A DNA stretch of 64,000 nucleotides from NCBI RefSeq assembly GCF_029227855.1, contig NZ_CP074356.1. One strand, 5' to 3'. This stretch comes from Escherichia coli (lineage in GTDB: Bacteria > Pseudomonadota > Gammaproteobacteria > Enterobacterales > Enterobacteriaceae). This document shows, in pieces, positions 34,658 through 41,254 of this stretch (within the stretch, counting starts at the first letter, position 1; each line of letters starts with the position of its first letter). Both the position numbers and the translations under genes were made by a program. The notes beneath the pieces are model-generated. The model had not been told where the DNA came from. It saw nothing but the letters and a program-made list of their open reading frames with translations, and searched no databases.

Positions 34658-35830
34658 TTAGCCAGCGTTAGCTTTTACGATATCGTCGATCAGTTTATTG
34701 ACAGGTGCCAGGCTGATTTCACGCGCGGTGCTTACCGCTACCGGTGTGGAACGTACTTTATTTGCCAGTACCTGACCGTCACGGTTAGTGGTATTGACGC
34801 TCACCAGCGTGGACAAACCGATACGCAGCGGGTATTGCTCGAGCTGTTTCTGGTCCAGTTCAATACGAACAGGCAGACGCTGAACGACTTTGATCCAGTT
34901 ACCGGTAGCATTTTGCGCCGGAAGCAGTGAGAACGCGCTACCTGTGCCCATATCCAGACCAACCACTTTACCGGTGTATTTCACATCATCGCCGTAAATA
35001 TCGGTGGTGATAGTGACCGGCTGACCGATACGCATATTGGCAATCTGCGTCTCTTTAAAGTTGGCATCCACCCACATATTGGTGGCTGGAACGACCGCCA
35101 TCAGCGGCGTCGTTGGGCTAATTTGTGCCCCAGGCTGTACCGCGCGGCGGGAGACATAACCGGTCATCGGACTGACAATACGAGTACGCTCCAGCGCCAG
35201 CCAGGCGTTACGTACTTCGGTGGCAGCCTGTTGCACGGCAGGCTGATCTTCCAGTTTAGTCCCCAGAATCATCGCCTGATTGGCATTGTATTGTTGAATA
35301 GCGACGTCCAGTTGTGCCTGGGCACTGGTGACGGCGTCGCGGGCGTGTTGCAGCTCTTCGCGACCAATCAGGTTGGCATTGCCCAGCGGCACACGGCGGT
35401 TGTAGTCGCTTTGTGCTTTCGCGAGGGCGATTTTTTGCACCTCAATATTCGCCTGCAACTGTTTGCTGTTAATCATCAGCTGGTGGGTTTGGCGAACGCT
35501 TGAAGCCAGTGCAGTTTTGGCTTTTTCAAACGCCTGGCGAGCATCTGTCGGGTCGAGAGTGACCAGCACGTCGCCTTCTTTTACAAAATCGGTGTTATCG
35601 GCCCAGACTTTCGTCACGCTGCCAGACACCTGAGACATAATTTGAATCTGATTCCCTGCCACGTATGCGTCATCGGTTTCTTCGAAATGACGCAGTACTA
35701 AAAACCAATAAATCCCTATCGCTACGGCAATAATTATAAAGAGCAAGGTGAGAAGGAGGAGCAGACGCTTACGTTTGCCGCTCTTCTTTACCGGTTGCTG
35801 CGGGGTTTGAGTCTCCGCATTTGCGCTCAT
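34658..35830 (-). CDS. emrA: Multidrug efflux membrane fusion protein EmrA
   Basis: HlyD-family adaptor; start chosen at MSANAETQ. Confidence 0.93.
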   Translation of the reverse strand: MSANAETQTPQQPVKKSGKRKRLLLLLTLLFIIIAVAIGIYWFLVLRHFEETDDAYVAGNQIQIMSQVSGSVTKVWADNTDFVKEGDVLVTLDPTDARQAFEKAKTALASSVRQTHQLMINSKQLQANIEVQKIALAKAQSDYNRRVPLGNANLIGREELQHARDAVTSAQAQLDVAIQQYNANQAMILGTKLEDQPAVQQAATEVRNAWLALERTRIVSPMTGYVSRRAVQPGAQISPTTPLMAVVPATNMWVDANFKETQIANMRIGQPVTITTDIYGDDVKYTGKVVGLDMGTGSAFSLLPAQNATGNWIKVVQRLPVRIELDQKQLEQYPLRIGLSTLVSVNTTNRDGQVLANKVRSTPVAVSTAREISLAPVNKLIDDIVKANAG

Positions 35831-35956
35831 ATTGTTCTCCACGATCTTCTTAACTCATCGGCTGAGCCGACCTGCTTGCCAAAAAGGCCAGCATGTTGCG
35901 ATGCTGGCCAGTCATTTTTTCTTTTATAAATCTGGATTTTTGAGCGAGATGACGCG

Positions 35957-36487
35957 TTAGCTCATCGCTTCGAGAACCACACCGTCTTGTTCCATCTGGT
36001 CGAGACGGGAGAGCAATTTGCGGGTGATTTGCTCGAGCTGATCTTTTTCTGTTGTGCTGAGCGCGGACCAGAGTTGATGCAGGCAGTTATGCTGCGGTGG
36101 TAAAACCTCGCGCAAAAACTCGTGACCTTTTTCCGTTAATTGCAGATGCAGGCAGCGGCGATCGTTATCGCTTTCACGACGTTCGATCCAACCGCGTTTT
36201 TCCAGTTCATCGGCAATACGCGTCGCGTTGGTACGGGATGATCCAAGAGCACAACTCAATTCAGAAGGCTGAATACTGTGGTTTTCCTGAGACTCCAGCG
36301 TAATCAACGCCATAAACAACGTCTCGTTAATCCCCTGAGCCTTCAGCATTTTATTGCGGTTCTCCAGCAGCTTGCTTTGCATGTGCATGCAAAGACGAGT
36401 CAGAAGGATCTCCTGATAAGGAAAATCTTCGTGGCGGCTGGCGCGAAATTTTAGCATTTGTTCAATGGGCGTAAACGAACTATCCAT
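35957..36487 (-). CDS. mprA: MarR-family repressor of emrAB
   Basis: 176 aa winged-helix MarR protein upstream of emrA. Confidence 0.92.
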
Positions 36488-36577
36488 TTGGGTATGACCT
36501 CATTAATTTCAGCCGATATAGTAACGACAGTGACAAATAAAGTAAATGTATTGTTTTAGAAAAATGATTCTTGTGGG

Positions 36578-36913
36578 TTATATAATCGCCATCACTTTCC
36601 AGGCGAGCCCATAGGCCAGCGCACTAAGCAGTGTTGGGATGATAATGCTGCGTGTTTTATAGAAACTGGCACCCAGTACCGCGAAGCCGACCAGTGTGGG
36701 CACGAAACGGCGTGTATCGTGCATCACTTCTGGTGCGGTAGAAACAACCAGCAGAGCGCATATCGAGGCGATGCCAATGGTGTCGAGCAAAATACCTACC
36801 GCGCCACGTTTGGTTGGGCGGGCATTACCCACACGCAGGCGCAGCGGCAAATAGCGGAAGCAATAATTCGCCGCGCCAACCAGTAACCCAAGCAGCAGAA
36901 CCTCATAGCTCAT
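36578..36913 (-). CDS. ygaH: L-valine exporter small subunit
   Basis: 111 aa AzlD-like membrane protein. Confidence 0.88.
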
Positions 36914-37640
36914 CGGGCGCTCCTTGCCAGAATGCCTGGATTAACGCAGTGAGGCAGCCACAGACAATGCCTGCCAGAATGGCGACGGGAATAGAAAATA
37001 GCGTTACGCCTGCAAGGGCACCAACTAACGCTGCGGTAACGCAAAGAGATTGTTTGCGCTGGAAAGAGGCGAGCAGGAAACTCATAAAGAGTGCCGGAAG
37101 CATAAAACCTAATGCTGCTTCAACGGCGGGATATCCTTGCAGCAAGCCGCTGCCGGAGAATGCCCCTATTACCGTACCAAATACCCACGATGACCATGAA
37201 CTGAAGGCAATGCCGATCATCCAGTTCTCGCTCCAGCGGCGATTATTGTGTACCAGTTTTGCGGTTGCGGCGGCAAAAACCTCATCCGTCAGGCCAAATG
37301 CCCACAGGGCGGTTTTCGATTTTTGCAGACGCTGAATAATACGGCTACGCAGTGACGGGCCATACAAAACATGGCGAACATCCATTGCCATGACGGTCAG
37401 TGCAGCAACCCACAAACTACTCCCGGCTGCCAGCATCGCGGTAATGACGAACTGGCTCGCGCCTGCATAAATGATGCAGGAGAAAAAAACGCTTTCGAGA
37501 GGAGAGAATCCCAGACGGGTCGCATTCAGACCGAACGCAAAGGCCACCGGAATATAACTAATAACAATCGGTAAACTGTCTTTGCATCCTTCCATGAAGG
37601 TCGCCGAACCAGGAGCAGGCTGTGGAGTAGGGCTTTCCAT
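36903..37640 (-). CDS. ygaZ: L-valine exporter large subunit
   Basis: 245 aa AzlC-like membrane protein; overlaps ygaH start. Confidence 0.88.
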
Positions 37641-37763
37641 AGAGTGTACGCTTAACGATTGTTAATATTATAAATAGACTGAATGAATATCTTAACCTTA
37701 TCAGACTGATGGGCTTCTTAACACCCTTATAAGTGTAAAGCCACGAAAACGGTTGCTGATTGC

Positions 37764-38948
37764 TTAATTTGCGGCTTCCTGACGATGAAAACCTCGCCAC
37801 CAGACCAGTAAGTTAACCAGGGCAATCGTCGCGCCAGCCAGACAAACGCCAGCCCAACCGCCATGTTGCCAGGCTGAGGCTGAAATTAGCGAACCGGCGG
37901 CACCGCCAATAAAGTAGCTGGTCATGTAACCTGCGGTCAGGCGATTACGCGCATCAGGGTGTATTCGATAAATTACCGTCTGGTTAGTGATATGCACGCC
38001 CTGCACGGTGAGATCCAGCACCAGGATGCCGATAATCAAGGCCAGTACGGAAGTGTGGCCAAACCAGATCGCCAGCCATGAAAGTAATAGCAGCAGCAGA
38101 CCGAAAGTAGTGGTGTGGTGCGATTTACCCTTATCGGCAAAACCGCCCGCCGGACGAGCACCCAACGCTCCGGCAGCTCCCGCAAGTCCAAACAGACCAA
38201 TTACACCATCGCTGTAGTTAAAAGGTGGAGCGGCAAGCAAAAAGGCCATTGAGGTCCAGAGAATGCTGAAGTTGGCAAAGGTCAGGCAGCCCAGCAACGC
38301 GCGGGTGCGCAGAATTTTATCGCTGATAAACATGCTGAAAACGGAACCAAGCAACTGTGGGTAGTTGAGGTGGGTTTCTGATTTCATTTGTGGCAGACCA
38401 CGCCATAATGCCAGCGCCATCAGTGCCATTAACACCGAGGCAACCCAAAAGACGGTGCGCCAGCCGCCGAGGTTTGCCAGCAACCCGGCAACGGTTCGTG
38501 CCAGCAAGATCCCCAACAGCAGCCCGCTCATAATGGTGCCGACCACTTTGCCGCGTTTATCCGGTGAAGCCAGCGTCGCTGCCAGCGGAACCAGAATTTG
38601 TGCCACGACTGAGAATAAACCGGTTAATGCCGTACCGAGGATCATCATCGCCAGTGACTGACTGCTGGCAGTGATTAACATACCGCCCGCTGCCAGTAAG
38701 GTCATCGAGACAATCAGGCGGCGGCGTTCAAACATATCACCGAGGGGAACAAGAAACAGCAGACCTGCGGCATAGCCCAACTGCGCGGCGGTAACAATAA
38801 AGCCCGCCGAACTGGCGGAAAGGGAAAAGTTACGCGCAATGGTGTCGAGCAATGGCTGGGCGTAATAGTTGCTGGCGACCGCCAGACCGGTGGCGATAGA
38901 CATCAGTACGATCAGTGCCGGGCTAAGCTCATGATTAGGTTTAGTCAT
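37764..38948 (-). CDS. ygaY: MFS transporter (ygaY ortholog, apparently intact)
   Basis: 394 aa uninterrupted 12-TMS-like ORF at the ygaY position between ygaZ and proX. Confidence 0.8.
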   Translation of the reverse strand: MTKPNHELSPALIVLMSIATGLAVASNYYAQPLLDTIARNFSLSASSAGFIVTAAQLGYAAGLLFLVPLGDMFERRRLIVSMTLLAAGGMLITASSQSLAMMILGTALTGLFSVVAQILVPLAATLASPDKRGKVVGTIMSGLLLGILLARTVAGLLANLGGWRTVFWVASVLMALMALALWRGLPQMKSETHLNYPQLLGSVFSMFISDKILRTRALLGCLTFANFSILWTSMAFLLAAPPFNYSDGVIGLFGLAGAAGALGARPAGGFADKGKSHHTTTFGLLLLLLSWLAIWFGHTSVLALIIGILVLDLTVQGVHITNQTVIYRIHPDARNRLTAGYMTSYFIGGAAGSLISASAWQHGGWAGVCLAGATIALVNLLVWWRGFHRQEAAN

Positions 38949-39048
38949 TATTTTTGTTCATCAGGTGATGATTAAGCTGGAAATCAATAATAGCGGATGT
39001 TGATGAATATGGGATGAAAGATAGCTTGTTGAAATGTGCGGTGTGGTT

Positions 39049-39129
39049 TGTAGGCATGATAAGACGCGCCAGCGTCGCATCAGGCATTGTATACAGAGTG
39101 GCGGATGCGGCGAAAACACCTTATCCGCC
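39049..39129. repeat. BIME: two REP elements in inverted orientation
   Basis: First REP is the reverse complement of the canonical gcctgatgcgacgctggcgcgtcttatcatgcctac; second is gcggatgcggcgaaaacaccttatccgc. Confidence 0.7.
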
Positions 39130-39139
39130 CGAATAAAAA

Positions 39140-40132
39140 TTACTTCTGTGCTGCCAGCGCCTCATTCACCCAGCCATCGAACTGCTGCTGGTGGGCTTTG
39201 ATCCAGCCATCAACGTGGCCCTGAATATCGCCTTCTGAGGCTTTGCCGTCATGCATAATGGCGTTCTGGGCGTTAATATCTGCCACTGGTAACTGCATAA
39301 TGGCGAACAGTTTGGCTGCTGCCGGGTTTTTCTCGGCCCAGGCTTTGTTAGCAACGATATGCATGGTGCTGACCGGGAAGCCGTAATTCGCGCCATTCGG
39401 TAGTTTGGTATCGGCATTTTTATCGCCCGGCAGTGCAGAGAACGGCACCTGCAACCAGACGACATCTTTGCCCGGCTTCAGTTCGTTACTCACCCAGTAC
39501 GGCGTCCAGGTGTAGTAAAACACCGGCTTACCCTCTTTGTAACGACTGATGGTGTCAGCCATCATCGCTGCGTAGTTCCCCTGATTATGCGTCACGGTAT
39601 TGGTCAGTTCATACGCAGCAAGCTGGTGGTTGATCGCACCTTCGCAGCCCCAGCCTGGGTTACAGCCGGTTAAATCCGCTTTACCGTCGCCGTTGGTATC
39701 GAACAGTTTGGCGATCTTCGGATCTTTAAGTTGCGCGATGTTGGTAATTTTGTACTGGTCGGCAGTTTTCTTATCGATCAGGTAACCTTGTGCCGCGCCG
39801 TTAACAAATACTCCTTCACGATAAAATTTCTTATCGCCACCGGCAGCTTCGTACATGTTGTCATGCAGCGGCGTCCAGTTCACGGCGGTGAAGGTTGCAT
39901 CGCCGGAAGCAAGCGAGGTGTAGCCAACGTTGTAATCCACTTCGCTGGGTTTATTGACGGTATAACCTAATTTCTCCAGTGCACGACTGACCAGCAGCGT
40001 CTGGAAGGTTTCTTCAGTGATGGTGCTCTGAACTGGATTAACAGTAATGCCTTTGCCCGGCAGATCGGCAGCAAAAGTTTGTGTAGAGATAAGCGTGGCA
40101 AACGCTGTCGCAAAAAGTACGCTATGTCGCAT
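39140..40132 (-). CDS. proX: Glycine betaine/proline ABC transporter periplasmic binding protein
   Basis: Recognised ProX; start chosen at [11 protein letters not shown] (signal peptide). Confidence 0.93.
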
Positions 40133-40189: not shown

Positions 40190-41254
40190 TTACTTAATGA
40201 ATGGGCGGGTCAGCAAACCAACAGGGCCAGTGGTGTACCAGCGACGGTTGCCGCGACTGCGTGAGTCGCGCCCAACGGCCTGCGTCAGGCGGTCGAGGAT
40301 AATGGCGAGGATCACAATCCCGACGCCGCCAACGGTGGCAAGCCCCATATCCAGACGACCGATACCGCGAAGTACCATCTGACCCAGCCCGCCGACTGCA
40401 ATCATCGAGGCGATGACCACCATAGAAAGGGCCAGCATCAGCGTCTGGTTAACGCCCGCCATAATGGTCGGCATCGCCAGCGGTAACTGAACTTTGAACA
40501 GCATCTGGCGCGGGCTGGCACCGAATGAGCGCGAGGCTTCAATCAGATCCGCCGGAACCTGGTTAATCCCCAGAATTGTCAGACGGATAATCGGCGGCAG
40601 AGCAAAGATGATCGTCACCACTACGCCCGGCACGTTACCGATACCAAACAGCATGACGATTGGTACCAGATAAACAAACGCTGGCGTGGTCTGCATGGCA
40701 TCAAGCAGTGGACGAATAATTTTCGCCGCTCGTGGACTTCTCGCCAGCCAGATCCCCAACGGCAAACCGATGACGATACAGAACAGCAGGGCGGTTAGCA
40801 CCAGCGCCAGAGTAACCATTGCCTGTGACCAGGCACCGATTGCGCCGATGGCAATCAGCGAAACCAGCGTCGCCACGCCCATTCCGACACCGGAAATTTG
40901 CCAGGCGATGAGAGCGAAAACGATAATCGCCACCGGAGCGGGCATACCCAGCAGCAATTGCTGGAAACCGTTGAGGATGTAATCAACCGGAACGCGCACG
41001 CCCTGGAAGACGGGACGGAAATGGGTAACGACCCAGTCGATCCCTTCAGTGACCCAACTGTCGAGCGGGATCAGCGTTTTATGGAACGGATCGAGAATAT
41101 TAAAATGCTCGACGTTTGGCGCTGGCGTACTGGTCAGCCAGTCAGCACCACCGCCGTCAGTCGGTGCAGTCGCCGGTGTACCCCAGGCGTCTGCGGACTG
41201 TGCGGCACTGTCCGCCGCTGGCGTGGTATCCCACGGATTATTTTGATCAGCCAT
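40190..41254 (-). CDS. proW: Glycine betaine/proline ABC transporter permease
   Basis: 354 aa, recognised. Confidence 0.93.

Follow-up and report, generated by a model that had tools for sequence, protein, structure and literature searches.

Intact ygaY, a predicted 12-TM MFS transporter gene of Escherichia coli that is frameshifted in the K-12 lineage

YnfM of Escherichia coli exports glutarate in a CCCP-sensitive manner, and extracellular glutarate was not detectable for a delta-ynfM derivative of BL21(DE3) (PMC12622518); TCDB additionally lists arabinose as a YnfM substrate (PMC10971958). In PMC5417439, the entry P76628, ‘YgaY of Escherichia coli’, is classified as TCDB 2.A.1.36.3 within the Acriflavin-sensitivity (YnfM) family, with its substrate given as ‘Unknown’. 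The searchable literature on ygaY yielded no experimental work on the intact protein; the gene figures there solely as a pseudogene of K-12, as a neutral place for integration or as an anchor for H-NS. In K-12 it routinely serves as a ‘neutral’ site for chromosomal integration and as a control deletion of a pseudogene.

The window analysed here, a 64,000-nt stretch of the E. coli contig NZ_CP074356.1, carries an intact ygaY coding sequence at 37764..38948 on the minus strand, annotated by us as a 12-TM MFS transporter of the TCDB 2.A.1.36 YnfM family. In the ORF listing of the window it is one ATG-initiated ORF of 394 aa plus stop; the chance of 394 stop-free codons is ~(61/64)^394, roughly 6e-9. 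The translation matches Pfam PF07690 (MFS_1) with 142.2 bits against a cut-off of 33.4 (E 2.6e-41), over residues 17–289 and a second stretch. Upstream of ygaY lie proX (39140..40132, minus strand; the glycine betaine/proline ABC transporter binding protein), proW (40190–41254), proV and nrdF; downstream lie ygaZ (36903..37640, minus strand; a subunit of the L-valine exporter), ygaH (36578–36913), mprA/emrR, emrA and emrB, all of these neighbours being on the strand of ygaY. The single uninterrupted MFS-type ORF between ygaZ and proX that an earlier note on this DNA had described, without giving its strand, is confirmed by the ORF listing and the Pfam match.

The earlier note had also described ygaY as a disrupted pseudogene in K-12, and annotation and alignment bear this out. 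The MG1655 annotation (NC_000913.3) gives ygaY (b2681), which there too is flanked by proX and ygaZ, as a 1,178-nt pseudogene, and PGAP labels the ygaY locus of the K-12 derivative ER2683 ‘frameshifted’. The possibility, raised in the note, that the K-12 copy might itself be intact did not materialize: pairwise alignment with b2681 revealed a 7-nt deletion in K-12 opposite ORF nt 255–261 (GGCAGCG on the coding strand, codons 85–87; 38688..38694, minus strand), a placement that is ambiguous by a few bases, and a shifted K-12 frame that terminates after codon 88. The remainder of the K-12 gene, preceded by an 88-aa N-terminal stub, is open in another frame; this arrangement explains the old two-ORF names ygaX (b2680) and ygaY (b2681), as they appear in PMC3946193. 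Apart from the deletion, the window and K-12 differ at 37 nucleotides, 30 of them past the frameshift, and all 37 differences are synonymous, the window YgaY translation equalling that of K-12 on both sides of the frameshift. The gene was assigned to the E. coli ygaY ortholog group by its location between proX and ygaZ and by its identity to the K-12 frames. As no amino acid change is found downstream of the K-12 frameshift, the event is recent.

The origin of the lesion is suggested by E. coli C, the ygaY of which has one other nucleotide difference from K-12 in the first 953 nt. At the deletion site (ygaY nt 250–263), E. coli C possesses a perfect tandem repeat, GCGGCAT GCGGCAT, and K-12 possesses one copy. 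The K-12 inactivation thus bears the signature of replication slippage, by which one GCGGCAT copy was lost; the allele with two copies is the substrate of the slippage deletion. The window allele reads GCA GCG GGC GGT at this site and has no perfect tandem repeat. In the E. coli C-type repeat allele (phylogroup-A-type), codon 87 encodes Cys instead of Gly.

The distribution of the lesion was surveyed in 5,417 complete E. coli genomes using a 100-nt probe placed across the K-12 deletion junction; the probe also aligns, with a gap, to intact genomes, and alleles were separated by identity bands. The junction was present at 99% identity or higher in 353 of the 5,417 genomes, and a 40-nt junction probe returned the same 353 full-length matches. 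The remaining 5,064 genomes, ~93.5% of the total, are without the K-12 junction; their identity to the probe was below 95%, with a 107-nt span in all genomes among the matches listed. Every sampled junction carrier (19 of 19) was a K-12-type record of 4.58–4.70 Mb, the sample including MG1655, MFDpir, O16:H48 and laboratory transconjugant recipients. Conversely, an intact 1,185-nt CDS is annotated in all nine non-K-12 genomes that were inspected (JNEC-KY178, BL21, E. coli C, HB6, AUSMDU00014361, Ec1120, AH01, ECOD1 and SCU-313), and BL21 and the chicken isolate AH01 encode WP_000165699.1, which is identical to the window protein. A further 789 genomes have in common with the K-12 junction probe its initial 29 nt, which is consistent with the tandem-repeat allele type.

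Intact ygaY is the norm of the species and the K-12 lineage is the exception. The suggestion in the earlier note that this strain may keep a functional transporter thus stands in that the gene is intact and maintained by selection (see below), but not in singling out the strain. Nor is intactness itself new, as the intact gene is annotated in thousands of genomes, including BL21.

Conservation extends beyond the species. The protein is found at 100% identity on at least 1000 contigs. E. fergusonii, E. albertii and Citrobacter have orthologs that are 98%, 96% and 93% identical, respectively, and that bear no more specific name than ‘MFS transporter’. The Citrobacter gene order, nrdEF-proVWX-ygaY-ygaZH-mprA-emrAB, is the same. 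By the Nei–Gojobori method, comparison with Citrobacter yielded a dN/dS of 0.042 (dS 1.07, dN 0.045), and comparison with K-12 yielded effectively zero non-synonymous change. The Nd of 1.0 returned against K-12 was discarded; it is an artefact of path averaging at one Leu codon (CTT/TTG), and the proteins are identical. These values place ygaY under strong purifying selection, from which it follows that its product is useful outside the laboratory. The 37 of 37 synonymous differences from K-12, together with the dN/dS of 0.04 against Citrobacter, indicate at the level of sequence that the window copy is functional.

Divergence from K-12 is uneven around the locus. Over 35750–37749 (mprA-ygaH-ygaZ and the spacer) it amounts to 0–1.2%, and over 38000–39999 (ygaY and proX) to 2.8–5.2%. 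The 123-nt ygaY-ygaZ spacer (37641..37763, minus strand) has 0 differences from K-12 and the 191-nt proX-ygaY spacer (38949..39139, minus strand) has 8; proX has 32, all synonymous. This mosaic over 35750–40000 suggests a recombination boundary near the ygaY 3′ end. Amino acid differences from K-12 were noted in the flanking proteins, namely V78I and H131R in YgaZ, A14V in YgaH and A28T in ProW; in the genome that matches the locus at 100%, the YgaZ accession is the high-numbered WP_275877534.1, not that of K-12 or BL21.

An AlphaFold2 model of YgaY, computed with 82 diverse homologs, reached a mean pLDDT of 95.3 and a pTM of 0.93. Two six-helix bundles are connected by a short loop helix (residues 196–209); the helices of the N-terminal half span residues 10–40, 45–71, 75–94, 99–126, 132–161 and 163–184, and those of the C-terminal half span 211–239, 247–272, 276–298, 301–329 and 331–393, the last of these being TM11 and TM12 fused by DSSP. 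The twelve transmembrane segments expected from the outset are thus present in the model, which superposes on the 12-TM transporters SotB and MdfA with a TM-score of 0.84. A crude hydropathy scan had retrieved 10 strong segments of 12, the two missed being glycine-rich, and is superseded by the model. Among solved structures, the closest folds are those of the DHA1 exporters SotB, MdfA and NorA, with TM-scores of 0.80–0.85 at 15–18% identity. A sequence search of the PDB returned marginal matches only, to GlcP (N-terminal half) and to SotB (E 5e-4).

At the level of named families the assignment is less specific. All 25 NCBIfam matches were weak and none attained its cut-off, the best scoring 78 bits against 418, which makes an equivalog assignment impossible. 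The shortfall extends to the DHA1-type models, namely Bcr/CflA (50.4 vs 200.9), Cmx/CmrA (52.5 vs 400), EmrD (38.1 vs 479) and the sugar transporter model NF002921 (63.8 vs 401). BLASTP aligned YgaY with K-12 YnfM end to end, at 26% identity over 409 columns (E 2e-20), and YgaY is accordingly classed, on this comparison, as a distant paralog of YnfM and not its ortholog. At E <= 1e-30, the YgaY family comprises 1,144 clusters at 50% identity.

In MFS proteins, motif A, G-x-x-x-D-R/K-x-G-R-R/K, occupies the TM2-TM3 loop, and motif C, G-x-x-x-G-P-x-x-G-G in TM5, is typical of drug:H+ antiporters. Strict motif A is missing in YgaY, which presents instead a relaxed version, P-L-G-D71-M-F-E-R-R75-R76, at this place; of the 82 family members, 80 have D71, 66 have R75 and 60 have R76. 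Motif C was found in none of the 82 members, and YgaY itself has neither the G...GP..GG pattern nor any GP dipeptide. Near-invariant residues include Tyr28 and Gln31 (TM1), Gln56 and Tyr59 (TM2), Asp71, Arg75 and Arg76, Arg151 (TM5) and Arg336, as well as a polar face of TM10 composed of Asp312, Gln316, Asn322 and Gln323. NorA depends on an essential residue, Asp307, which may be the counterpart of YgaY Asp312. YgaY would operate by the alternating-access (rocker-switch) cycle of MFS proteins, driven by the proton gradient, with the four TM10 residues, Arg151 and Arg336 as candidate proton- or substrate-binding residues.

Given this fold and family placement, YgaY most likely, by analogy, couples the export of a small organic metabolite, possibly an anion, to the movement of protons. 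As to the direction of transport, we lean slightly towards export on fold and family resemblance at 15–26% identity. Two lines of reasoning support this preference: i) the full-length sequence and structure neighbours of YgaY are exporters, and ii) efflux is the activity of the only TCDB 2.A.1.36 members that have been characterised. The alternative, that YgaY is an intact and working MFS protein that imports a nutrient by H+ symport, is a possible reading to which we give appreciably less credence. It draws on the absence of motif C, on the NCBIfam model with the highest score, that of the aromatic acid/H+ symporter subfamily, and on the glucose symporter GlcP as the top sequence match in the PDB, each of which covers the N-terminal half only, and on the occurrence of symporters such as DgoT among the fold matches. 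The matches that extend over the full length of the sequence, and the top structure matches, are to exporters (SotB, MdfA, NorA, Cmx/CmrA and Bcr), however; the efflux record of TCDB 2.A.1.36 speaks against import as well, and no catabolic genes are linked to the gene in any context examined.

Homologs at 46–57% identity reside in four neighbourhoods that have nothing in common and in which neither a regulator nor an enzyme is linked to the gene; genomic context thus offers no hint of the substrate. Because delta-ynfM BL21(DE3) exports no detectable glutarate while the ygaY of BL21 is intact, YgaY is probably not a redundant glutarate exporter under those conditions.

An intact reading frame may nevertheless be silent. 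According to this explanation, which we consider improbable, ygaY is a cryptic gene, repressed by H-NS and devoid of its own promoter, that confers no benefit under normal conditions. A scan of the coding strand of the proX-ygaY spacer found no consensus sigma-70 promoter and no terminator; the scan is crude and misses non-canonical promoters, and it predicted no more sites here than in shuffled sequence. No clear Shine-Dalgarno sequence precedes the ygaY ATG. Both observations are in keeping with silence. Just downstream of proX, a REP-derived element (Rfam naRNA4, RF02564; 39053..39130, minus strand) was recognised by cmscan with 71 bits against a gathering threshold of 59.5 (E 4.6e-12), and in the proVWX paper a terminator is inferred at the operon end; these two points are likewise in keeping with silence. 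An inverted-repeat search of the spacer returned nothing at the settings used, despite this element. The element also explains why, with a 1.5-kb BLAST query, the median number of matching places in a genome was 8.

A six-codon upstream mini-ORF, ATGAACAAAAATAATGACTAA, at ~38941–38961 on the minus strand, overlaps the ygaY start codon out of frame, and its start is also without a clear Shine-Dalgarno sequence; the mini-ORF may be a chance occurrence or be related to low translation. In the ygaY-ygaZ spacer, the scan identified a promoter-like site, TTAAGA-17-TATAAT, at 37695–37667 on the minus strand. PMC3946193 lists a constitutive RpoD promoter with these hexamers between the two genes, and the site therefore belongs to ygaZH.

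Published data on the K-12 locus bear on silence from both sides. In K-12, ChIP gave a signal for H-NS at ygaY, and H-NS joins the ygaY region to the proU regulatory element in a loop, a bridge that is compatible with repression; K-12 also tolerates loss of the gene, and the locus serves for neutral integration and control deletion. On the other hand, RT-qPCR detects ygaY transcripts even in K-12, with a moderate rise after salt shock; the proVWX paper attributes this rise to read-through from proVWX and finds that StpA insulates the operon from ygaY. The dN/dS of 0.04 across genera is not expected of a silent gene, and neither is the complete lack of amino acid changes within E. coli. We thus prefer an expressed gene to a silent one; expression of ygaY is probably low and may rise slightly through proVWX read-through after osmotic shock.

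The neighbours of ygaY invite a functional reading as well, in which YgaY would work alongside ProVWX on the transport of an osmoprotectant or a similar solute, or alongside YgaZH on that of a branched-chain amino acid. We regard such a link as quite unlikely. The order and orientation of proVWX-ygaY-ygaZH are conserved in Escherichia and Citrobacter, and the salt-induced read-through would bring ygaY transcripts up with those of proVWX. Set against this, ygaZH is served by a constitutive promoter of its own, located between ygaY and ygaZ, and the homologs at 46–57% identity occur in contexts unrelated to proU or ygaZH, which marks the adjacency as a feature of the Escherichia/Citrobacter lineage and not as evidence of shared function. 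Osmoprotection by ProU and valine export by YgaZH were both studied in K-12, which is without YgaY, and this too counts against the link. The operon-end terminator and the StpA insulation, the former inferred and the latter demonstrated in the proVWX paper, separate ygaY from proVWX, as does the REP element in the spacer.

In the more specific version, which we deem very unlikely, YgaY is an osmotically co-induced partner of ProU that, for example, releases or recaptures a compatible solute or by-product; it would be switched on by proVWX read-through once H-NS/StpA no longer insulate the proX-ygaY boundary. Its support consists of the conserved adjacency and the modest read-through after salt shock. 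Were that true, K-12, the reference strain of osmoregulation, would be without part of the natural system. Of the placement beside the valine exporter and the osmoprotectant uptake operon in the earlier note, the adjacency holds, but it is no evidence of a functional link.

That an assembly artefact or a hidden defect underlies the apparent intactness is close to inconceivable, and no observation in favour of it was found. The 1,541 nt of 37600–39140 are 100% identical in the independent complete genome JNEC-KY178 (where the identical DNA is annotated as ‘MFS transporter’ WP_000165699.1), which removes concern over a sequencing artefact. BL21 and AH01 carry the same protein accession, the window YgaY has every conserved residue of the family, and the structure model is confident over the full length.

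Taken together, the ORF is very probably an ordinary intact wild-type ygaY allele that encodes an orphan 12-TM MFS secondary transporter. As a discovery its value is small, as the pseudogene status of K-12 ygaY is already part of standard annotation and literature. Its significance lies in an orphan transporter carried by nearly all E. coli and retained in more than one genus: work in K-12, including Keio knock-outs, fitness screens and transporter-substrate screens, is blind to any role of YgaY, and the neutrality of the ygaY locus is limited to K-12, the gene elsewhere (BL21, wild strains) being intact and under selection.

In comparison to known systems, K-12 ygaY (UniProt P76628) is the same gene at the same locus, and its protein is identical to that of the window once the 7 nt are restored; the K-12 gene lacks one copy of the 7-nt repeat and is frameshifted, whereas the window copy is intact. 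WP_000165699.1 of BL21, AH01 and JNEC-KY178 is identical to the window YgaY, and its database entry carries no assigned substrate. SotB (6KKK), MdfA (4ZOW, 6EUQ) and NorA (8TTE) share the 12-TM MFS fold with YgaY over ~380–390 aligned columns; unlike typical DHA1 transporters, YgaY lacks motif C, and it scores far under the cut-offs of the DHA1-type NCBIfam models. YnfM (b1596, TCDB 2.A.1.36.1) shares with YgaY the TM5 arginine (Arg151), the relaxed motif A and the absence of motif C. The two differ in TM10, where the polar residues of the YgaY group (Asp312, Gln316, Asn322 and Gln323) are replaced in YnfM, and in their surroundings, as the divergent LysR regulator YnfL adjoins ynfM and ygaY has no such neighbour.
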